From: Escherichia phage usur
DNA length: 41,906 nucleotides
Direction: 5' to 3' (one strand)
Sequence record: MN850624.1
The first letter of the stretch is position 1; each line of letters starts with the position of its first letter. A program made the translations under genes and the position numbers. The notes under the pieces were generated by a model. That model ran no database searches. It had not been told where the DNA came from and saw only the letters and a program-made list of their open reading frames with translations. Below are positions 6,751-41,906 of this stretch, in pieces.

Positions 6751-9700
6751 TATTCACCCTTAACTGCTTCGTTGAGTGCCCGGACGCCCGGCACGATTGA
6801 GATGAGTGGGATAGCTTGGATGATGTTACCTGCCGTTTTACGAGCGCCGGACACTGCCTGCTCGGTATCACCAGTCAGCACGCCGCCAGCAGCACTGGTA
6901 GCTGCACCCGCCACACCGTAAGCGCGGTCAAGGAACAGCAAGCCCGGCGCACCGAAGCTACGCTGCTGCCCAGTCAGGACGCCAGTGAACTCAGAGGCAA
7001 AGCCGATAGCACCAAGATAATTCAGCGCTTGGCCAGCCAGCTTGTTAGGTGCCATGGTTTCCGGGTCAGAGAATGCTTTACCGGAAATCACGTTATTGGC
7101 GGCAGTGGCCATCATTGCCAGCGGGTACTGGTACGCCATGAGCGTAGCCATGCCACGCGCACCCTCACGATTCCATGTACCCACCAGAGTCTTGTTGTGC
7201 GTAGCCGCGACGAATCGACGGAACGTAAACAGGAACTTACCCAGTGTACTGAACTCAGCAAATGCAGGCAGCTCACCTACACGAGCGCGAACAATAGCGT
7301 CATCCATGGCATTCATCATGACAATGCGAGAGCGATTGAACACCCCTTCATCCCAAGCGTCGGGCTTGGTGCCATGAGTACCAACCTGCTTGCGAATGTC
7401 AGCCAGCAGCGCGTCATTGGCACCATAGGTTTTCATGGCTGCGATAGCCTTGGCATCACCTTCGGCTGCCTTACGCAGCGTCTGCATCACGAGCGCAGCA
7501 TTGGTTCGAGTCTGGTGGAAGTGGATGTATTTCTGCATGTTGATGAACATCGTGGCGTCACGGGCGTGCTCAAGACGCATAACCCACGGTGACTTGTCAG
7601 CAGAGAACATGTCTTCATAGTGCTGCATGATTGGGCGCATACGGATATCGCTCGCCACGGCAGCGGTCAGAGCTTCCTCAGCATCCAAGGCCAACTGACG
7701 ACCTTCCTTAGTAGTAGCCCTCATTTGCTTAAATAATGCGCGAGCTTCCGGGATTGTACGCATCATGGCGCGAAATGTGTTGACCGCCCCGAAACGTTGC
7801 ATCATCGTGCCGTATTCCACCAACTGCCACAGACCGGACGCAGCCAGACCAGTAGCCTGAGTCAGTGCGGAGAGCTGGCGCATGAACTGCGGCATTTCCT
7901 CGCCGACCGGGGAACCCTGATAGTAGGCCATGATATTGTCATACTGCTCCAGTGCTTGGCGTCGAGCCGTACCATCCTTGATGGATTTGGCCAGAGCCTC
8001 ACGAGCAGCAGCGCGTTCGGCGTCAGTACCCAGTCCAGCCTCATGCAGAGCCAATCGCCCTGTAATGCGGCGGTTGTACGCATCCATCATGCTGGTGATG
8101 CTGTCATCGAACAGGTCACGCACCTGCAAGTTAGGGCCGAGCTGGTGCATCATGTCGATGTTGATACGGCTCTTAAGCATCGACGGTCGGCCAGCGTCCG
8201 AGCCAGATTCACGAAGGAGTGCGGAAGCACGGGCCTTGGCAGCCTCGTCAAGTCCTTTCGAGTTCTCAATGATTTCGAGCAGCTCATCGCGGCCCTCCTT
8301 GTTGATAATCATACCGGAGTTGTCGATACCGTAACCCTTGCGGCGAGCACGCTCCACCATGGCATGGGCAATGACGTTGGCAGTCGGACGGTCAGTACCG
8401 ATACCGCGCTGCACGGCAGTCGTCATCTGCTTCATGAATGCTTTCTTGCCAAGCAGTTGCTCAGCCTGCTCAACCTTGGTTACGTTCATCCGACGCGGGT
8501 AGTAGTACGGGTTCTTCTCCACGAAGCCCGGCTCAACCATACCCTTGCGCTCCAGCTCCCGGCCCACGGCGCGAGAGTATTCGCCCAGTCGGTCAGCAGC
8601 ATTGGCCACGTTCGGGTTAGCGCCACGGAAGTTGTTGTCAATCATGCGCTTGTCCAGCTCAAGACGAACAGCAGCTTCGAACTCCTGCTGCGCCCGGCGA
8701 TAGCCAACCGGGTCACGGAAGCGTCGGATGTTACTCCAGCCATCAGTGGTCAGGGCATGGCGCAGGGTGTCCTCGTACTGATTCAGCAGCACACCGAAGC
8801 GAGCCTGAGTCTCGCGCTGGATTGCAGCAGCAGAGGTCATGTTCGGATTCAGCGGGTCATCCAGCAGACGCCCGGCCAGAGCACTGGCTTCGTCAGAATG
8901 CTGACTGAACGACTTGAACAGTGACCACTCAAGGAACGGGCGCTTGGGGTTGGTCTGCTCACCACGGCGAGCGAGGTCGAGTCCACGCTGAGCCGCAGCT
9001 CGGATGGATTCAGGAACCTCATCAGTCTCCATTGCACCGCGACGCCCGAAGCCCAGTGACATTGCCAGCGGAGACATGGCGTTGTTCGGGTCGAACTGCG
9101 GCGGGTTGTTCGGGTCAATCCCGTTACGGCGCTGCATCTCTGCCGCAAATTCCTCCGGCGACAGCTCATCAAGGCGACGAGCTGGTGCAGCGGCTGGGCG
9201 ATAGAATGCAGTGGTGGCCGCCCCGTGCAGGGCAGCCGCAAAGATAATCTCGTTCTGAGACACTGGGCGTGCTTCATTACCCACCGCTGTCATAGTGACA
9301 GCAGTTGAAGCTGCACCGACAGCGGCGGTTCCGAGGCGACCAAGTTTCAGGGCAGTGCCTGCTCCCATCGAGAGCAGGTCAGTGGCGAGGTACAGCGGGT
9401 CAGCGAATTGCAGCACTGCGTTCATCACTGGCGCAGTGTGAGCCAACTGGGTACGCTCGCGCATCTCTTGGAGCTGCTGTGTACGCCAGTTGAACTCATC
9501 CATTGATTTGGACTTGAACAGGAACGTGCGGTCATCCTCAGTCACCGGGAACTGGACATTCTGCAATGCCTCGTTCGGGTGGAAGTCAGGGTCAGCCTGA
9601 AACACAGGCTTGTTGATTGCCGCATCAAAGAGCTGAGTGGTATCCCAGTTCTTCACAGAAGCGCTCAAAGCCGTGGCAATTGGGGTTGCTTCCAGTTCCT

Positions 9701-13289: not shown

Positions 13290-15734
13290 TTAAATTCTCC
13301 GAGTGCGATTGTAGAACTTGACGTAATAACCCAGCCCCTGAATATTCAGGTCGCCAGCCGTAGACGAATCAACGACCATGCTGCTGGATTCGACCTCAAG
13401 GCCCATGCGAACTTTCAGGTGCGCACGTTTCGCCAGCATTGCAGATTCCAATCCGAGTTCCTTACTGGTGTAACGAATCGGGCTGGACTCAATGTTGTAG
13501 GCGTCGTATGCTCCCCGGTCGGTCGCCGTGATATTGAACAGGCTGGTGTACCGCAGGGTGAAGTTATAGAACATCACGACCATCTTGTTCACGTCCATGT
13601 ACGAGCCGTCACCGTTGAAGATGCGCGGCGGCGTAGGACTGAACAGTGCTGTGAAGCGCAGGCCAACCCACAGAGTTGTGGAGCCATAAGATGGTTGCAG
13701 GTACAGACGGCGGTTCGTGGTGTCCACTGACTTGATACCGACCTCGGCACCAATGTAGTCGCCGGACGGCACAACCGTGGTCATGAAGTCAGTGTTGCCA
13801 TCGGCCAGATACCGGGCCTGAATAATATCCCACAGCGCTTTCTGCACGCCATCGGCAGCGAACTGGATGTACGAGCTATCAGTGCTTGGGTTGGTCACGG
13901 TCATGTTCTGCGCATAGTCCATCGCAGGCAGGAATCGTGCTGGGTCAGTCGGGTCTGGTGAATCACGCATAGACAGCGTGAGCATGTGCATGTGGCCATT
14001 CTGCTCAACCAGCGCCACCAGAACCTCACGGACAAACCACGCTGCGTGGATAGTGCCGTACAGCTCCCAGCGATGCCACGAGGACATTACCTTCTCATCC
14101 CCTGACCAGAGGTACTCGTTCACGTACAGTGTCGAGCGCTCAGTGGTCGAGCCAAACACGACGATGTTATTCGTGGTGCTGGCCGAGATGTAGCTGTTAG
14201 CCCCTTCCAGATAGGTCGGCAGGTGGTCGGTCACGTCCTGACTCACGTACTGCAAATCCGTGTAGCCGGACGGCAGCATCTCCTTGATGGAGAACGAGCT
14301 GTTCGAACGCGGGTACGAATAATACAGGCTGCGGCCAGAGGTGGTCGGCGCTACGCCAGTGTCCATCTGGTACGTCGAGGTGAGCACAGCCGTGGCGTTG
14401 CTCGGTGACAGAATCTGGTTACGTCCGGGGATGACGGCCTGATGTTCTTCACTGGCCAGAATCAGGTCAGAGTTGAACGGGATGCCATACCGGAACGATG
14501 CGCCAGCGAAGCTCGACGCGGTGAACTCAATGCGGTCACTCTCCAACAACTGGGTCACAGTGGTGCGGAAGAAGTTAGTCCGGTCATCCTTGTCGCTGGA
14601 ACCCATGGTGATGTACGGGCCAGAGAAGATAATCAGGCGACCTTGGAACGATGCCAGCCCAGTGATGCCCACGCCATTGGCGTCGGTGAATGCAGGAATG
14701 GCGTTGGTCTTGTCATCGCCAGCAGTACGCCCCGGCCAAGAGCCTTGAGCGAACGAGTGCTGATTGAGCGTGCTGGTCGTGTTGAATACCAGCGGCATAC
14801 CACTTGGGTTAATCCCGGTCGGTGAGCCGTAGGCACCCTTCTCCACCCAGCGCGAGTTGGCGTAATCCCACTGGAAGTATTGCGCAAAGCTGTCATCACC
14901 TACGGTCATGATGAAGCCACCAGCCTGAGTCGGCAGACGTGCCGGGAGCTTGGTGGTCAGGTCAACCCTGTGAGTGTTTGATGCGATGGCATACGTTGAG
15001 CCAGTGTTCGTGGACACGTTCAGGTCAGTGTAAGCGGCAGTCGTCTGGAGGTACATGTACGCCCCATCCGTCTGCACAACCTCAAGCCCGGTAGAGCCGC
15101 CAATGGCAGTGTCGAGCTGAGTCTTCAACTGGCCAATGATATACTCGGCAGTGGCCTTGGTAGCATCACCAGCGGTAGTGCCGTCCGGTGTGGTGTATGA
15201 GGCGCTGTATGCGCCGCCGCTCGTCTCAATGCGAACAGTGTACTGCTTGCCATAGGCACCAGCCAAAACGAAAAAGTAACCCCGGCGACCCGGATTCATT
15301 CGCGTTTCGTTCTCAAGCAAAACAGGTAGCTTCGAACAGTTGGCCACATACATCGTGTTGCCTACGGTCGTGAATACAATGTCGTCAGGGTTGGAGGTAA
15401 TCAGGTAGTTGGACTGCCCCATGAATTGGACAGTCTCAGTCTCAACGAAGGAGGTGACGTACCCGGTCAGCGTATTGACCACGAAGGTAGTTACACCCCA
15501 CCCAAGGTTGGTTGTGTAAAAGCGCAGGTGGCCAAAGTTACCAAGGCTCCAGACACTGGCGTTGGTGGAGTCCACCAGTTTAGTGTCGCGGGTGCCGGGG
15601 CGTTTACGCAGGCCACGCACGGTATCAGAGGTCATATTGACCTGTTCCTCAACCTGCGATAGCTGGCGGTCAGTGTAGACCTGCTGGCTCACGCCGCCGA
15701 GGATGGATTTATAAGCGCCTTGGTATACTGGCAT
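13290..15734 (-). CDS. tail tubular protein B (gp12-like)
   Basis: 814 aa, immediately after the ~200 aa tail tubular A gene; same size class as T7 gp12. Confidence 0.8.
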   Translation of the reverse strand: MPVYQGAYKSILGGVSQQVYTDRQLSQVEEQVNMTSDTVRGLRKRPGTRDTKLVDSTNASVWSLGNFGHLRFYTTNLGWGVTTFVVNTLTGYVTSFVETETVQFMGQSNYLITSNPDDIVFTTVGNTMYVANCSKLPVLLENETRMNPGRRGYFFVLAGAYGKQYTVRIETSGGAYSASYTTPDGTTAGDATKATAEYIIGQLKTQLDTAIGGSTGLEVVQTDGAYMYLQTTAAYTDLNVSTNTGSTYAIASNTHRVDLTTKLPARLPTQAGGFIMTVGDDSFAQYFQWDYANSRWVEKGAYGSPTGINPSGMPLVFNTTSTLNQHSFAQGSWPGRTAGDDKTNAIPAFTDANGVGITGLASFQGRLIIFSGPYITMGSSDKDDRTNFFRTTVTQLLESDRIEFTASSFAGASFRYGIPFNSDLILASEEHQAVIPGRNQILSPSNATAVLTSTYQMDTGVAPTTSGRSLYYSYPRSNSSFSIKEMLPSGYTDLQYVSQDVTDHLPTYLEGANSYISASTTNNIVVFGSTTERSTLYVNEYLWSGDEKVMSSWHRWELYGTIHAAWFVREVLVALVEQNGHMHMLTLSMRDSPDPTDPARFLPAMDYAQNMTVTNPSTDSSYIQFAADGVQKALWDIIQARYLADGNTDFMTTVVPSGDYIGAEVGIKSVDTTNRRLYLQPSYGSTTLWVGLRFTALFSPTPPRIFNGDGSYMDVNKMVVMFYNFTLRYTSLFNITATDRGAYDAYNIESSPIRYTSKELGLESAMLAKRAHLKVRMGLEVESSSMVVDSSTAGDLNIQGLGYYVKFYNRTRRI

Positions 15735-16339
15735 TATCCTCTCCGAGCACTCTCATATCGCCACCAGCTCTGACGCTGGCGTGCATTGAATCGACGTTGA
15801 CGGGTATGGATTGACTGGCACTGCTGCAACGCCATGGCATAGCCGCCTGTCACGCTGGCCGGAGGGTTATCCCCAATGTCGTCGGCGTAAGCTGAGATAG
15901 CTGCTTGATATGCAATGAGTCGTTGAACAGGACTCGGTAGGTCATCCCACCCCAAATCATAAGTAACCAATCCCGGAACATCCTCAGTAAAAACAAAGGT
16001 TTGGGATTGCGCGTTGTAAAGATACCCGCCTCGCACAATACACTCAAACCCATCGGGGATGAAGCTCAGTGCGTCTGCGGGATATTTGACTCGACCATCC
16101 GACTCGCGTGGAATGGTGATTCGGATATTGTTGAACCACCAGCCATCGGTGAGGACTTCTTCCGTCGCCACGTTAATCTTGTCAAGCGCAAGGGTAACGG
16201 ACGGGTTTCGAATCTCAGTCGAGGATACGGTGTGCTCCGACAATGCCCGAAGAACAATATTAACTGCTTCGAGTAAAGTCATAAAACCTCCAGTGACAAT
16301 CATAGAAGCCCCTCGTGAGAAGGGCTTCGAGTTTGCCAT
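15734..16339 (-). CDS. tail tubular protein A (gp11-like)
   Basis: 201 aa, directly downstream of the major capsid gene. Confidence 0.75.
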   Translation of the reverse strand: MANSKPFSRGASMIVTGGFMTLLEAVNIVLRALSEHTVSSTEIRNPSVTLALDKINVATEEVLTDGWWFNNIRITIPRESDGRVKYPADALSFIPDGFECIVRGGYLYNAQSQTFVFTEDVPGLVTYDLGWDDLPSPVQRLIAYQAAISAYADDIGDNPPASVTGGYAMALQQCQSIHTRQRRFNARQRQSWWRYESARRG

Positions 16340-18593: not shown

Positions 18594-20159
18594 TTAAATC
18601 TGAGCGACGTTCGGCGCTACATCGACTGCGCCCGGCTGTACGCCTGCGGCAGCGGCTGCTGCTCTGTCGATTTGCTGACCTTCATTTGCGAGGTCTTGCG
18701 CTGACTTACGATAGTCATCAAGCGCGACGCCGTTGGAAGCGAAGATAACCTCAATGACCTTCTGCGGGTCAATGACGTTGGCAACGCCGTTAATGTTTTG
18801 GACAGCAACCATTGCTGCCTGCGAATCCGAGAGCGCACGAATAAGCGTCTCAGCTTCGATGCTGCGACCGAGGGCATCCAGACCAGCTTCAACTTGAAGC
18901 GTCAGGATATCGCCCACAATGTCAGGTACGGAGGACTCGTCAATCTCTGCGAGCAAGACGTATGCCAGAGGAATCTGGAGGGTCTTTGCCTGCATTGAGT
19001 ACGGGCCACCCAGCCCACGTTCGGCGCTGGTTGCTACCTGCTGCACTTCGGTTGCGGTGGTACGCTCCGAGTCACGGAACTCACCAGTGTACATGAACGC
19101 CTGCGCGAGTCGCTGCACAATCTGGTTAATTTCGTCACGGGCCTGTTGAACTTTCTGGTAATCCCCGACCTCAAGACCAGACAGCGTGGTGCCATTCTGG
19201 AGAGGTACGACCTGCCCGGTCTGCGCGGATTCAATGTCATCGACGTTGCCGCCAGAACCAGTCAGCATCCACAGGACACGCAGCGCCTCTTGCATGTACA
19301 GAGCTGAGTGCTCAGACAGCATCGACAGACGTGCGAAATCCCCAGCGTGGTCTTCGACAATCCCGCGACCATAATGCTCGCCAGACTTCAAAGACCACAC
19401 TGGGAAAATCCAAGGGCAGACTTTTTCAGGGTAGTAATCTTTACCGGGGGTGTAGACACAGCCTTGGTAGTTGCCCACCTGCTGCGTTACTTCATAGCCA
19501 TACAGCCCACTGTCCTTCCGAACTCGGAGGACGCGAGTGTACAGCCACACACGTTTGTTGCCACCACAGCGGAAGCCCTTGGCGTTCAGCATGTCCTGAA
19601 ACGCTTTGTCGAGGGAATCCCACTGGATGCGTTCTTTGACCACGGCGTCCGTAACAACGCCACGACCGTCGCGCTGCACCACGAAGGATTCCAGCCCGTA
19701 CACTCGGTACGTTCCAGTTTCCATATCGCGGTACAGCGCGGCGTTACCAGTGACTGCTTGTTGGGCAATGGTCATTAACAGGTCAGCGTAGCCGCCATTC
19801 TCTTTGGCTTTGTCTACGATGCCCTTTTCAATAGTGATGAGTGCCTGATTAACCTTAGACATTTGCTGCCGCTGTTGGTCAGACACCTTATCGAGTTTCA
19901 GCTTTACGAACCGGGCTGATGCCGGGAACAGGAACTCACCCAGTCGAGCGACGAGGTTGTTAACGAGCAGAGCGCCGACAGATTGGTAGTCACGAGTAAT
20001 CTGCTGGCGGTTCATGTCGTCTACTTCGGCGCGGTCGTATTCACTGACCAGCTTGGCCAACGTGTAACGACTGTACTCACGAGCCTTGGTGACTACGTTA
20101 CTGTCCCGGTACTTTTGCCAGAGCGATTCATAGCTGACGTTCTGCGCGTCATATGCCAT
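18594..20159 (-). CDS. portal (head-tail connector) protein
   Basis: 521 aa, size and position match T7 gp8. Confidence 0.85.
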   Translation of the reverse strand: MAYDAQNVSYESLWQKYRDSNVVTKAREYSRYTLAKLVSEYDRAEVDDMNRQQITRDYQSVGALLVNNLVARLGEFLFPASARFVKLKLDKVSDQQRQQMSKVNQALITIEKGIVDKAKENGGYADLLMTIAQQAVTGNAALYRDMETGTYRVYGLESFVVQRDGRGVVTDAVVKERIQWDSLDKAFQDMLNAKGFRCGGNKRVWLYTRVLRVRKDSGLYGYEVTQQVGNYQGCVYTPGKDYYPEKVCPWIFPVWSLKSGEHYGRGIVEDHAGDFARLSMLSEHSALYMQEALRVLWMLTGSGGNVDDIESAQTGQVVPLQNGTTLSGLEVGDYQKVQQARDEINQIVQRLAQAFMYTGEFRDSERTTATEVQQVATSAERGLGGPYSMQAKTLQIPLAYVLLAEIDESSVPDIVGDILTLQVEAGLDALGRSIEAETLIRALSDSQAAMVAVQNINGVANVIDPQKVIEVIFASNGVALDDYRKSAQDLANEGQQIDRAAAAAAGVQPGAVDVAPNVAQI

Positions 20160-20162
20160 TCG

Positions 20163-20423
20163 TTAACTCCCGATGCCGAGGTTGCTTGCTACACCCGTTC
20201 CGGTGCGGCGGCGTCGGCTCGATAAAGTGTCGGAGGCCGAAGTAACCTGACCACCTGCCTGAATCGTCGGGGTGTTATCGTTCGCCAAATCAGCCTGCAA
20301 GTTCGCATTCAAGGTTTCAGCCTTGACCTGATTCGGGTCGGTCTTAATCGTGTACTGGGGTTTCTGGCTGCCGAGTCCAAAGACCGAGCCAATCCCCTTG
20401 AAAACTTTACCTACGCTACCCAT
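20163..20423 (-). CDS. small virion protein, gp6.7-like (hypothetical)
   Basis: 86 aa Gly/Ser/Thr-rich with a basic C-terminal stretch (SRRRRTG), immediately upstream of the portal gene. Confidence 0.4.
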   Translation of the reverse strand: MGSVGKVFKGIGSVFGLGSQKPQYTIKTDPNQVKAETLNANLQADLANDNTPTIQAGGQVTSASDTLSSRRRRTGTGVASNLGIGS

Positions 20424-20842
20424 TACGGTTTCTCCAAATCAATGAAGCGGTACTCCTGAACGTAAGGCCGCACCATGTGGGAGTAACCGCACCAACGCAC
20501 ACCCTCGGAACGGGCCACGTCTTTGAGTACACGGAGGATGACACGCATCACTCCACGGTTTCTGTACTGGGGCCAGACGTATGAGGCCATAACGACCACC
20601 ATCTCGCCCACATGAATATCGAATAACCTGCCGATGTGAGCAACAGCCATGAGGCTGCCGTCATCGTCAGTGATGTAAACGTCAACACAGCCATTGGCCG
20701 TAGCATCGTACATGCTGTCAACGATTACATCGGGAGATAGGTTCGACCATGGCCGCTCGGCTTGGATGCCCTCGGCCACTGCACGGCGAATGTCAATCGG
20801 CATTGTCGTGTGTGATGTATTTCCCATAGTAGTAGCTTTCAT
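20423..20842 (-). CDS. GNAT-family N-acetyltransferase (putative)
   Basis: 'VWPQYRNRGVMRVILRVLKDVARSEG' matches GNAT motif A (R-x-x-G-x-G/A followed by a helix). No clear RBS for any of the N-terminal Met codons, so the start is uncertain. Confidence 0.45.
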   Translation of the reverse strand: MKATTMGNTSHTTMPIDIRRAVAEGIQAERPWSNLSPDVIVDSMYDATANGCVDVYITDDDGSLMAVAHIGRLFDIHVGEMVVVMASYVWPQYRNRGVMRVILRVLKDVARSEGVRWCGYSHMVRPYVQEYRFIDLEKP

Positions 20843-20843
20843 T

Positions 20844-21110
20844 TCAAATCACTCTTTCGCGTATGAAATCCAGCACGTCCTGCTTACCAGCTTCTCTGTT
20901 GATGAGAGGAAGGTTAGTGTCTATGGTTACTGTCCGGCCAACCTTCTCCCATGTACCGAAGTGCTTTTCCAGTAGAGCTAACTGAGCTTTAGTGAACGTT
21001 ACTCTATCTAATGGAGATTCTTTACCCATACAATCCTCTCTGAGTGGCAGCACCCCCGCCACTGACGGGGCTACCGGTAGCGTGATATCTATCACTATAG
21101 TAGCTTTCAT
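20844..21110 (-). CDS. hypothetical protein (start uncertain)
   Basis: 88 aa ORF starting MKATIVID. The internal Met at 21029 has a strong RBS (AGAGAGGATTGT-ATG) and lies downstream of the promoter-like element, so the real product may be 61 aa. Confidence 0.4.
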   Translation of the reverse strand: MKATIVIDITLPVAPSVAGVLPLREDCMGKESPLDRVTFTKAQLALLEKHFGTWEKVGRTVTIDTNLPLINREAGKQDVLDFIRERVI

Positions 21111-21139
21111 AAATAGTCAAAGAATACAGTACCTTATTA
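21088..21139 (-). promoter_or_regulatory. conserved element A, candidate phage-RNAP promoter (late)
   Basis: Minus strand reads TAAGGTACTGTATTCTTTGACTATTTATGAAAGCTACTATAGTGATAG; the core CTACTATAG resembles the T7/SP6/K11 promoter core CACTATAG. Starts at the RNAP stop codon; followed by a GC stem-loop (GCCCCGTCAGTGGCGGGG) and a strong RBS. Confidence 0.4.
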
Positions 21140-23569
21140 ACAGAAGAATTTGGTAGATTCTTTGACAAGATTTATGTCCAAGCTGCCCTTAGCTGGAGCC
21201 TCACGATTATACGCTTTGGCAAGCTGTTGAATTGGGTCATGTTGCTCATACATCTGCACGAACTTTTCACGGATGACTTTGTGCAGTAACCCTGCATGAG
21301 CAGCAGCAACACCGAATGAGTCATGGATGGATACCATGTAAACCCCGTTATTCCACATCTCCCACAGCACGCGCATCATGTGGCTGGCGTCCATGGCGTG
21401 TACGAAATTCGGAGCAATCGCAGCCGCACACTTACGTCCGTCAGGCTTATCCAGATACTCCCTCAGTTTAATCTGATGGACACCCATGAGGTGCAGGTGC
21501 ATCGGGGATTCCTTGGACGCTTGGTACAGGTTCGGCACCCGCAAACCGGATGGTGCAATAATCTCCACGTACTCGCCCATGCTCGCAGCTTCCAGCGCGA
21601 TAGCCTGCAACCATGCCATAAGCTCAGCAGCTTTCGGCACAACGCGAGGGATAGCGTTCCACATGAACTCAGCAATGAACTGCGCACACTCCAGCAGGGT
21701 CTTCCCTTCCGGCAGCTTGACGCGGTTCTCACGCAGGTACAGGCAGTAGTAATCCACCATGCCGTGCCGGGTTGCCCCGTACACGTAGGTCATCACTGGC
21801 TTCTTCGCCATCGCCCGAACAATGCCGATGGACACCAGCCAAGCACCCATTGGCGTCGGCGTGACTGCCTCACTTTCTTCAAGAGCCTGCATCGCCGCTG
21901 CTGCCGTCTTAAGATAGATGTCTGCTTTGCGTCCCACGCTATTGATAAGATTGACAGCAGCACCTCCAACCTCATCTCGTAGCATCGCACTGAGGTGCTG
22001 GAGTCCTGAACATGTAGCGTCCCATTGCGTAACCACTCGGCAGGGATAAGTCTCAGGACTTCCTGAGTCGATAGCTCGAATGAGTTCAACAGAAGCAGCC
22101 CACGCTGAGATAGGGCTATCGGCCTCTGACCAGAACGAATCAAATGCCTCTGGAAGACGGCACGCCTCACGTAATCGGGGGAGTGTTTTGTCCGTCCACG
22201 CTGCCCGGTCTTCGAAGTCTGTGGCGTCGTATCCAAAACAATTCGCAACATGTACCTTGAGCCAGAACAGCCCCTCGTTTCCGAGAGCCACTGGTTCAGC
22301 AAGTTCGAGCAGCGCTCGCACCGCGTCGATGGACTGAGGGTTAAGGGTCGAAGAATAATAAATTCGGCCCCGCGTATCGGCGTAAGTCGGGAGATAAATC
22401 CTATCGTACTGGGCATAGCGCTCGGCCTCTTTGACTGCGCCGTTCAGTGCCAGCATCTGCGACGTGAACTTACGCAACTCATTGTAATACAAGCGAGTCT
22501 TCACCTTGTACTCATGAGCTTCCGCATCCATCTGCTGCTGCATTTCCGGTGGGAACTTGCTGATGTACTGGGCGAAGCTGACGCCTGCCGGGATAGTGAA
22601 TGGGAGCTTAGGCTCACGGGGCGGCACAGGCAGCCCCATAATGCCTGTACGGTTCGTTCGCAGGAACTCCAGTACCATTGGGTTAACTCGGTACGGAACG
22701 CTGCTGAGCATCATACACGGCTCTATAACGGGGGTCGGGTCAACGCCCAGCGCACGATACCCTTTGTGGTTCATGCGACTGATAACCCGGTACATTGCTG
22801 ACTGCCCCGGCGAGTGCCACATACCACTGCGACCGTTCGGAGCAATCTGCGCTGGCGGTACAATAAGCGGTGGGCAGCACATGCCATCGGCACGCGGCAT
22901 ATCCAGCCAGTCATTCATTGTGGCCAGCACATCTTCGTGCAGGGCGAAGTGCGCAGTACCGCGCTGACGGTGGTTGCCGCCGACGCGGATAGTGCAGACC
23001 AGACCAGTTGGCTCAACGCACTGCATCATCAGCTTGCCCATGGTGATGAGCGCACGCTGAGGCAGGATATCAATCTCTACCCCAACATTGGCTGCCGACG
23101 CTTTGGCTTTGTTGTAAGCATGGTTCGCTGACTTGGTGCGTGACTTCTTCACGTCAGCCTTAACCTTCTCCATGTACGCCGCGCCGACTGGCCCTGACTT
23201 CTTCGCACGCTGGTACACCACCTCAGCCATGAGCGCCTTACCCATGTCTTTCAGCAGATTCAGTACCGCCTGCTCCGACGCTGCACCGGACACCGCCATG
23301 CTGAGCGCCAGCGACGAACACGCCTTGACGCCCAGCTCACGCATAAATGTCCGGTACTGCGCACCAGCACCACGGGTCGTTTCATTCAGGAGGTCTTGCA
23401 TCGCAGCTTCAACTTGAGGGAAAGCCTCAACCATCATACGTTGGAGCAACGGCACCGACCCTGCCCGGCCAGCGGCCATGGCATCTTTGATATTGTCCAG
23501 CCAGCCCTCGCGGTGTCTGGCTCGCGCTTCTTCTTCAAGTCGAATCTGCTCAGCAAGTAAGTCCATCAT
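21137..23569 (-). CDS. single-subunit DNA-dependent RNA polymerase (T7-like)
   Basis: 810 aa; '[20 protein letters not shown]' (T7 '[20 protein letters not shown]'), '[14 protein letters not shown]' and 'SIHDSFGV' match T7 RNAP catalytic motifs. Confidence 0.92.
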   Translation of the reverse strand: [810 protein letters not shown]

Positions 23570-24571: not shown

Positions 24572-25067
24572 CTTTATCCCCATCGTATTTTGCATTGGCA
24601 TGGACATACTCATGGTTGTCTTCATACCGGGTTACTTCGTACACCGTGATGCCGAGGCTACGCATGAAGTCCACAATATGTGGCAGGTCATCAAAGGCAC
24701 AGACGATGTTCTCAATGCCAATGTCCTCCAGCGCAGCACGCTTCATCTCAGTGTCTTTGCGGCAGTCGCCAATCTCACGCATGATGAGCTTGTCATACAC
24801 CACACCATTGTCATCGAGCCACTGCTCGGTTACTTCACGGGCCACGGCTCCGCGTCCGGTCAGGATGATAATGCGATACGTGAGGGCCAGTGCGTTCACA
24901 ATATCAATCGTGTCCTGAAACGCTGGGTCGTCAGCGCCAGCCAAGTTGAACTCGGCCCACGCTTCGTCGAGATGCCTGCGCTCCGGTGGAGGCAGCAGGT
25001 GCAGACGCCAACGGCCATCAGCCAGCGTGCCGTCAAGGTCTACTACTACGGTGTCTTTCATGTGCAT
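24564..25067 (-). CDS. HAD-superfamily phosphatase (polynucleotide 3'-phosphatase / nucleotidase-like)
   Basis: 'VVVDLDGTLADG' is the HAD motif I (DxDGT). Start chosen at ATG 25067 with RBS GAGGAAG; ORF-track start is 25160. Confidence 0.6.
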   Translation of the reverse strand: MHMKDTVVVDLDGTLADGRWRLHLLPPPERRHLDEAWAEFNLAGADDPAFQDTIDIVNALALTYRIIILTGRGAVAREVTEQWLDDNGVVYDKLIMREIGDCRKDTEMKRAALEDIGIENIVCAFDDLPHIVDFMRSLGITVYEVTRYEDNHEYVHANAKYDGDKDE

Positions 25068-34990: not shown

Positions 34991-35007
34991 ATTTCCTCCA
35001 CGTTGGC

Positions 35008-35030
35008 CAATATAGTAGCTTTCATAATGC
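35008..35030 (-). promoter_or_regulatory. conserved element B, candidate phage-RNAP promoter (middle genes)
   Basis: Minus strand reads ATGAAAGCTACTATATTGGCC, same 15-nt core as element A; 226-bp intergenic gap at the early/DNA-metabolism boundary. Confidence 0.35.
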
Positions 35031-35173
35031 CAGCTAAATAATAACTGGCATGAGTAAGATACTAAGCTGGAATAATATTCCGCATAATACGTTGAAGGTC
35101 TTCGAGTTTACTCTCGGCTTCCCACTTTGTATCACGCACAGCCAAAGGTTTATTTGGTTGCAGCTTATCAACT

Positions 35174-40955: not shown

Positions 40956-41063
40956 CCGATTTAATCAGCGCCCGTTCTGAGATGAATAAACCGTACCAGT
41001 TTGCCTGCGTGTGTTTTAACGTCTTTATCAATGACTGTTTAGCTTGCTGGCTGACGTGGAAGC

Positions 41064-41092
41064 ATTACAGCATAGTGAGCTTGCCTTGTCAA
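41064..41092 (-). promoter_or_regulatory. sigma70-like early promoter P3
   Basis: Minus strand: TTGACA (41092-41087), 17-nt spacer, TGcTGTAAT (-10 at 41069-41064). Confidence 0.5.
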
Positions 41093-41167
41093 TACACTCC
41101 AGATTGTTAAAGAGCAGTGTTACCGTCTTGCCACCGTGTAGCGATGTTCTGCTACCCGGCGAGATGA

Positions 41168-41197
41168 ATTACAGCACAAAGCGAATCAGACTTGCAA
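41168..41197 (-). promoter_or_regulatory. sigma70-like early promoter P4
   Basis: Minus strand: TTGCAA (41197-41192), 18-nt spacer, TGcTGTAAT (-10 at 41173-41168). Confidence 0.4.
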
Positions 41198-41229
41198 GAA
41201 TTATTTTCACTGAATAGCTCAAATAGTGG

Positions 41230-41330
41230 ATAAGTTACTGTAATCATTAGGAATAAATATTTGATTGAATAGGTTATTGCATAGGATAGATACCGATATC
41301 AGATAGGTTATAAGTTACTGTAATCATTAG
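41230..41330. repeat. two perfect 20-bp direct repeats (TAAGTTACTGTAATCATTAG) 81 bp apart in an AT-rich segment
   Basis: Exact copies at 41230-41249 and 41311-41330; the second copy forms the 5' part of element C. Confidence 0.8.
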
Positions 41331-41358
41331 ATAATTATGAAAGCTACTATAGTGATAT
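41311..41358 (+). promoter_or_regulatory. conserved element C (plus-strand copy of the promoter-like element)
   Basis: Plus strand reads TAAGTTACTGTAATCATTAGATAATTATGAAAGCTACTATAGTGATAT, about 40 of 47 positions identical to element A but in opposite orientation to all genes, pointing into the T-depleted tract. Confidence 0.35.
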
Positions 41359-41374
41359 GTATCGCTAGATACGC

Positions 41375-41860
41375 AGAGCGAGCGCGGCGCAGCCGAAACA
41401 AGCGAGCGCGGAACGGCAACGGATGGAATCCGACAGGATGACAGGCGGCAGCCAGTGAACGCAGTAGGACAGGTGACACAGTAGCAGAGCATGACGCGCA
41501 GAGCTGGCGGCGCAGACAGTAGACCAGCAGACAGGACAGCACCACGGCAGCACCGCCACCACACAGCACCACACGGCGCAGAGCATCACGGCAAAAGAGA
41601 CAGATACCCGCACGACCGAGCGCAGCACGCAGCACCGCACAGCCAGCGCAGAGCGTCCCCATAGGACAGCACCGCACCGCACAGCCAGCAGGACAGCGCA
41701 CAGCACGCCACACGGCAGACGATGAAACGCGACACGCACGAGCTATACCGCACGCAGGCAATCCTCTTGACGCGCCGCGCAGCGCACGCGAGCAAATATC
41801 GCGCACGTCGCGAGGCTAATCCGCGCACACGCTATGGGGGCACGCGCGGTCATTCGGGTC
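41375..41860. other. strand-asymmetric, T-depleted (plus strand) low-complexity tract; candidate genome-terminus region
   Basis: Over ~450 bp the plus strand is almost entirely A/C/G with quasi-repeats (GCGCAGAGC, CAGGACAG, CACAGCCAGC). All three minus-strand frames are open here, as expected for an A-poor strand. Confidence 0.6.
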
Positions 41861-41906
41861 GAGGGAGGCCCACGCACAAATAGTCAATTTTCAAGCCGGG
41901 GTATTG

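Follow-up and report, generated by a model that had tools for sequence, protein, structure and literature searches.

A repeated element at module boundaries of Escherichia phage usur as the likely promoter of its own T7-type RNA polymerase

The polymerase gene and four copies of the element

The window analysed here, 41,906 nt in length, is the complete genome of Escherichia phage usur (MN850624.1), a T7-supergroup podovirus of the genus Bonnellvirus (Autographiviridae); every gene lies on the minus strand. In the polymerase region, identity is 96.6% with Kosakonia virus Kc261 and 86–88% with a set of Escherichia, Cronobacter, Enterobacter and Pantoea phages. The RNA polymerase gene closes the replication module immediately ahead of the virion genes, as in phiKMV-like phages, and its 810-aa product is presumably the enzyme that reads the element described below. 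The segment of residues 685–703 in this protein is a hot spot of clade-specific substitutions. A PHROG search of the small genes beside the putative promoters returned no functional names except 'virion structural protein' for 20163–20423.

21137–23569, minus strand: gene of a T7-type single-subunit RNA polymerase, 810 aa (E = 1e-55 to T7 RNA polymerase chains in the PDB)
21461–21517, minus strand: specificity-loop segment of the polymerase, residues 685–703, aligning to T7 residues 742–758

The element ATGAAAGCTACTATAG occurs four times in the usur genome. The 21-mer ATGAAAGCTACTATAGTGATA is found exactly at 21090–21110 (−) and 41337–41357 (+), with 0 occurrences expected from 100 dinucleotide shuffles; a 15-mer of the element has a further exact copy at 35011–35025 (−) and a fourth copy with 2 mismatches, of which 12 nt are exact, at 20828–20842 (−). 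The 15-mer search thus gave 4 matches against 0.01 expected, and all four occurrences reported in a preliminary description of this DNA (the 21-mer at 21110 and 41337, 15 nt at 35025 and 12 nt at 20842) were recovered. That description had also proposed a search for mismatched copies of the core, and such a search turned up no others above chance: allowing up to 3 mismatches to the 13-mer core gave 6 matches against 4.8 expected, the good ones being the known four only. The start of the polynucleotide kinase gene at 25061 (ATGAAAGACACCGTAG) was considered as a family member and rejected on its 4 mismatches and lack of covariation.

21090–21112, minus strand: candidate promoter copy 1, −17 to +6, inferred +1 at the G at 21095
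20822–20844, minus strand: candidate promoter copy 2, off consensus at −2/−1 (ATGAAAGCTACTACTATGGGA)
35005–35027, minus strand: candidate promoter copy 3, at the boundary between early and DNA-replication genes
41335–41357, plus strand: candidate promoter copy 4, full consensus, +1 G at 41352

Copy 1 sits in the 26-nt gap behind the polymerase stop codon, with a full consensus of ttATGAAAGCTACTATA and then GTGATA from +1; the two copies behind that stop codon stand at 26 and 294 nt from it. Copy 2 overlaps the start codon and first five codons of a 139-aa gene (20423–20842). Copy 3 has T instead of G at +1 (ATGAAAGCTACTATA followed by TTGGCC), and copy 4, on the strand opposite to all genes, is aimed at the left genome end and the terminal repeat. 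In the melting and initiation region, CTATA is followed by G in two copies and by T in one, and the remaining copy has CTACT followed by A.

The T7 class III consensus is TAATACGACTCACTATAGGGAGA. The preliminary description had noted that CTACTATAG is one base off the T7/SP6/K11 core CACTATAG, and inspection against this consensus shows that it was correct. Copy 1 (ttATGAAAGCTACTATAGTGATA) and the T7 consensus agree at 14 of 23 positions; −6 to +1 (ACTATAG) is identical in the two phages, and 7 of the 9 mismatches lie between −13 and −7, a stretch of which part sets specificity in T7.

The sequences around the copies have features of their own. A 32-nt direct repeat (…GATAAGTTACTGTAATCATTAG) stands twice upstream of the leftward copy, at 41219–41250 and 41299–41330 (+), and a relative of it lies upstream of the post-polymerase copy at 21113–21137 (−); the copies at 21110 and 41337 are 83% similar across 54 nt because of this relative. 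The repeat may be an upstream promoter element or a piece of early host promoters on the other strand. The inferred transcripts would start with a palindrome, GTGATAGATATCAC at 21082–21095 (−) and GTGATATGTATCGC at 41352–41372 (+), which in glasur is kept as a shorter hairpin despite a 1-nt deletion. Such a 5' palindrome may be an RNA-stabilising hairpin or a protein-binding site.

Conservation of the element and covariation with the polymerase

We compared usur with eight complete relatives (seven Bonnellvirus genomes and LIMEzero) and with nine more genomes by their polymerase region. The element was found at the same sites in 17 related genomes, and every Bonnellvirus genome carries it at the same four places in the same orientations. 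One copy follows the polymerase stop codon by 26–28 nt, another lies where the second downstream gene starts, a third stands between the early genes and the primase module, and the fourth is on the other strand, close to the left end. The alignment with relatives suggested by the preliminary description gave conservation of the element without conservation of a reading frame at 21110, 35025 and 41337.

When +1 is set at the G after TATA, the bases that vary between genomes are −8, −7 and −6. They read CTA in usur and Kc261; TGA in glasur, forsur, RZ4 and ROV85 (glasur-type promoter, GTGACTATA); TGT in altidsur, aldrigsur, megetsur, mellemsur, HHU8, LF82-23, BHUENT7 and one IMG/VR contig (altidsur-type promoter, GTGTCTATA); and TAA, together with CTGTA, in J8-65. 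Across the eight complete Bonnellvirus genomes, each genome's own variant recurs at all four sites, so that the bases of copy 2 shift together with those of the other copies, the exception being the 20842-equivalent of J8-65, which has TAT. Two more divergent contigs carry further variants, and their copies are less uniform.

Each −8 to −6 variant is paired one-to-one with one polymerase sequence at residues 688–699 among 17 Bonnellvirus genomes, which make up only a few clades and hence a small number of independent events. The polymerases of usur and glasur are 90% identical overall; at residues 688–699, 9 of 13 alignment columns differ, compared with 72 of 798 elsewhere (Fisher p = 3e-7). 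HMMER places these residues at T7 residues 745–754, inside the specificity loop, in a part of the alignment that is gapped and of low identity. The T7 specificity loop (739–770) contacts promoter bases −7 to −11. An invariant G at −9 is accompanied by an invariant lysine aligned to T7 R756. Judged from these alignments, the joint change of loop and promoter at every site is what enzyme-promoter co-evolution would predict.

A separate observation concerns RZ4, where ATAGTGATATGTATCA is present twice within 19862–19910, once as positions −3 to +13 of the post-polymerase promoter and once immediately upstream of that promoter. This doubling is common to RZ4-, altidsur-, ROV85- and HHU8-type genomes and looks like a tandem partial duplication of the promoter.

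Pantoea phage LIMEzero (NC_015585) belongs to a different genus, with the same genome organisation and a polymerase 70% identical to that of usur, and carries an unrelated repeat, AAGGCAAGCACTAAGG, at the same four positions and at one more. Two of its sites, at homologous positions (7294–7313 and 20330–20349), are annotated as 'putative phage specific promoter'; one of the annotated promoters directly follows the RNA polymerase gene, and the other stands between a terminator hairpin and the primase module. We found three unannotated matches to the LIMEzero consensus, two exact and one with a single mismatch, at 20744 (+), 33870 (+) and 652 (−), the first at the start of ORF36, the second within ORF45, which encodes an internal virion protein, and the third close to the left end and directed leftward. 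ORF36 begins with a perfect LIMEzero promoter consensus.

The layout was further compared with phages whose promoters have been mapped. Four phage-specific promoters, P001 and P007–P009, were identified in Pseudomonas phage LUZ19 by ONT-cappable-seq: two directly follow the polymerase gene, another belongs to the structural region, and the last is an antisense promoter at the left end; antisense transcripts cross the genome end, and the promoter positions are conserved in 15 other Phikmvvirus species (PMC10914365). P001 is the analogue of usur copy 4, and we located the LUZ19 motif at 748 (−), within the A-depleted left end of that genome. The LUZ19 motif GgtTATGTCACacACAnnGG (TATGTCACacACA) is unrelated to that of usur: the layout is common to the two phages, the sequence family is not. 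The fourth LUZ19 copy lies in the structural region, whereas that of usur lies before the primase gene, and the LUZ19 promoters were mapped experimentally, whereas those of usur are predicted from sequence. Klebsiella phage KP34 has a strong promoter, T(A/G)ATGTTACAGGAGTA, just behind its polymerase gene, demonstrated by 5' RACE and in vitro transcription (PMC6834552). As in usur, one KP34 copy directly follows the polymerase gene and another lies near the left end; the motif (TAATGTTACAGGAGTA) is unrelated to that of usur, and the left-end copy, at 475, is on the gene strand, unlike in usur. Four copies are present in each of usur, LUZ19 and KP34, compared with 17 in T7. Further differences from T7 are that the usur polymerase gene ends the replication module instead of lying among the early genes, and that one usur copy faces the genome end.

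Start codons, hairpins and the leftward copy

Each copy contains an ATG that could open a Met-Lys-Ala-Thr reading frame, and the preliminary description proposed that the starts at 21110, 20842 and 35025 are artefacts if transcription begins inside the element. At three of the four sites the ATG is not a conserved reading-frame start. The ATG at 21110 is in frame with the downstream gene in usur and Kc261 only; glasur, RZ4, altidsur, ROV85, HHU8 and J8-65 have indels or stop codons that disrupt it. The downstream in-frame ATG with a ribosome-binding site to which the same description had pointed is indeed present, and its equivalent is where the gene starts in all annotated relatives.

20844–21029, minus strand: the true 61-aa gene, with ATG 21029 behind GAGAGGA

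By this comparison, 21030–21110 would be a 5' leader and not coding. At 35025, a 16-codon open reading frame, the frame relation to the next gene varies between genomes, and the copy at 41337 lies on the non-coding strand, with a stop at codon 8 in altidsur. The view of the starts as artefacts therefore held for 21110 and 35025, where the frame is not conserved, and did not hold for 20842, a conserved annotated start.

In every relative, LIMEzero with its ORF36 among them, the homologous 139-aa gene is annotated as starting at the equivalent of the ATG at 20842. This ATG directly adjoins the stop codon ahead of it, a Shine-Dalgarno-like GAAAGAG lies upstream, and an alternative start codon near the equivalent position is absent in Lidtsur-type and LIMEzero genomes. 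A promoter-like copy and a real start codon coexist here. The N-termini of this gene follow the promoter variant (MKATT, MKVTI, MKVST and MKVSV, with MKAST in LIMEzero), and because its first codons track that variant, the DNA appears to be selected as a polymerase site and not for the peptide. In most genomes this copy is off consensus at −2/−1, so transcription from it may be weaker or begin at another position; in J8-65 it is near-perfect, with one mismatch, at −6.

We also searched for other signals near the copies. A strong hairpin lies directly upstream of copy 3:

35028–35051, minus strand: 10-bp hairpin (z = −4.4; 0 of 200 shuffles fold as well)

In altidsur and HHU8 this hairpin shows a compensatory change (tgccag/ctggca to tgcctg/caggca), and hairpins of other sequence occupy the equivalent position in J8-65 and LIMEzero, where LIMEzero annotates a terminator. 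It is likely a terminator or processing site for early transcripts. Folding was no better than that of shuffled sequences for the 5' leader after 21095 (z = −1.4) and for the first 119 nt of the leftward RNA (z = −1.35), and a scan for sigma-70 promoters and intrinsic terminators around all four copies gave none that coincides with the element. A strong hairpin after the capsid gene (16305–16328, z = −3.55) resembles the T7 late terminator in position. It falls within the first codons of a 201-aa open reading frame at 15734–16339 (−), the counterparts of which bear the label tail protein A in J8-65 and altidsur; a start at the ATG at 16282, which GGAGG precedes, would give 182 aa, the annotated length of the Kc261 homologue, and the listed start is probably too early. 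Elsewhere, the E. coli Chi sequence GCTGGTGG occurs 10 times, from 1485 to 30786 and always on the minus (coding) strand, compared with 2.8 expected on both strands; this excess could be a codon-usage effect or reflect RecBCD protection.

The region that copy 4 would transcribe is almost devoid of T on the strand that corresponds to the RNA.

41352–41906, plus strand: non-coding region that copy 4 would transcribe, 8.6% T compared with 22.9% genome-wide

Some 50-nt windows in this region contain 1–2 T, and it includes, by homology to J8-65, a single collapsed copy of the direct terminal repeat. The gene-sense strand is likewise A-depleted at 1–500 of J8-65, 100–600 of LIMEzero and 1–700 of LUZ19. 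Stop codons are missing from such sequence, and for this reason the long open reading frames in the ~550-nt left-end region (e.g., the Kc261 hypothetical protein at 41017–41556) are probably artefacts. The equivalent of copy 4 has the same orientation in all 8 complete relatives examined, at 652 (−) in LIMEzero and at 548 (−) in J8-65, which has an annotated 259-bp DTR at 1–259. No terminal repeat was found at the two ends of the usur record (1–39 and 41862–41906); aligned to J8-65, the record is a circularly collapsed assembly opened 39 nt past the endolysin stop codon. Based on this alignment, the true left end probably lies near 41861 and the repeat at roughly 41600–41861. RNA from 41352 would then cover ~250 nt of unique sequence followed by the repeat, the physical left end lying roughly 510 nt away, and on concatemers it would run on antisense into the lysis genes. 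No Rfam family matched anywhere in the usur genome, which indicates that neither the leaders nor the leftward RNA correspond to a known RNA. ATCTGTT, the class II pause signal of T7, was absent from the leftward-transcribed region, and the tandem repeats at the left end amounted to two trivial arrays.

T7 has promoters adjoining its genome ends, and by analogy one may speculate that the leftward copy has a role in replication or concatemer processing. For the corresponding LUZ19 transcript, a block on read-through into the early genes was suggested (PMC10914365). A leftward promoter and an A-depleted left end are common to Bonnellvirus, Waewaevirus and Phikmvvirus, and this sharing by three genera might point to a conserved end role and not an incidental antisense promoter; priming replication, processing concatemers and blocking read-through are candidate roles for the RNA. 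As a tentative and rather doubtful extension of these observations, the N-terminus of the 20842 gene might be dictated by, and co-evolve with, the promoter specificity of the polymerase, and the leftward RNA, ~0.5 kb long and nearly U-free, might have a conserved genome-end role.

The promoter reading and its alternatives

The element is repeated, stands at conserved positions, varies together with the polymerase and lacks coding conservation at three sites, and we consider it to be the promoter of the phage's own T7-type single-subunit RNA polymerase with a probability of about 0.9. The proposal of a phage RNA polymerase promoter at module boundaries, made in the preliminary description, gains strong support from the comparative data and fits the mapped LUZ19 and KP34 promoters. 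It has to be weighed against three other readings. It would be highly improbable that the copies form a conserved translation start module, in which four genes begin with Met-Lys-Ala-Thr under selection on the peptide or on initiation. ATG AAA does open all copies in a favourable start context, and 20842 is a real start with its Shine-Dalgarno-like GAAAGAG upstream; however, the frame at 21110 is broken in 6 of 8 relatives, the frame at 35025 relates differently to the next gene among genomes, and 41337 lies on the non-coding strand, with the altidsur stop at codon 8. There is no Shine-Dalgarno sequence at 21110, 35025 or 41337, and even at 20842 the coding changes (A to V, T to S) track the promoter variant while the peptide is not conserved.

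The copies would also serve as DNA signals if they were host sigma-70 promoters or were bound by some other DNA-binding protein of the phage, for instance a regulator or a replication or packaging factor. The 21110 copy has a TTGACT 15 nt ahead of its TATAGT, the palindromic +1 to +14 sequence GTGATAGATATCAC could bind a dimer, and one copy adjoins the terminal repeat, an expected place for signals of packaging or replication. Yet the consensus scan (−35/−10 with a 16–18-nt spacer) found no match at any of the four copies, and TTGACT stands at a spacing of 14–15 nt and is missing from the other copies. The variable bases covary with the region of the polymerase specificity loop and, as far as tested, with nothing else; −6 to +1 equals the T7 promoter, and the positions fit the mapped single-subunit polymerase promoters of LUZ19 and KP34. 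We regard this reading as very unlikely. Equally, little credence can be given to the copies as functionless remnants of a recent duplication or gene conversion, their identity reflecting homogenisation and not selection. The 54-nt similarity of the 21110 and 41337 copies does exceed a normal promoter, and RZ4-type genomes have the extra ATAGTGATATGTATCA upstream of the post-polymerase copy. Against this, LIMEzero, in a different genus, keeps the four positions with an unrelated sequence, the post-polymerase and leftward sites are kept in Phikmvvirus, repeats of 15–21 nt are poor substrates for conversion, and the core is exact while the flanks diverge.

Under the preferred promoter reading, the element would be a promoter of ~23 bp, (T/A)(T/A)ATGAAAG-CTA-CTATA followed by G, and we infer that transcription starts at the G following TATA. 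By analogy with T7, the AT-rich part at −17 to −13 would be bound by the N-terminal domain, the part at −11 to −6 read by the specificity loop, and TATA melted for the start of RNA synthesis; this mechanism would be the same as that of T7, SP6 and K11. The copy at 21110 would launch the late (virion and lysis) transcript just past the polymerase gene. The copy at 20842, 268 nt downstream, would act as a second and probably weaker promoter and also provide a real gene with its start codon and initial codons. The copy at 35025 is predicted to restart transcription of the replication genes behind the terminator hairpin, and that at 41337 to fire leftward over the terminal repeat, yielding a non-coding RNA. 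The activity of copies 3 and 2 is uncertain because of the T at +1 in copy 3 and the departure at −2/−1 in copy 2. The 'ATG AAA GCT ACT' reading would be a by-product of the promoter sequence, translated only at 20842.

Our literature search found no transcript 5' ends or in vitro transcription for usur or any Bonnellvirus, and no description of Bonnellvirus promoters; the two papers on the genus do not contain the word 'promoter'. The element is most likely a genuine regulatory signal of a kind and layout already known from related phages, and the present analysis supplies a likely promoter consensus for a genus in which we found none described. The gene starts can be corrected, 21029 being a start and 21110 and 35025 not. 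The layout first mapped in Pseudomonas phage LUZ19, including the leftward end promoter, is extended to enterobacterial phages. At least 4 closely related polymerase/promoter pairs that differ at −8 to −6 form a natural set, and these pairs could be used as orthogonal parts for transcription and to test the rules by which specificity loops work.
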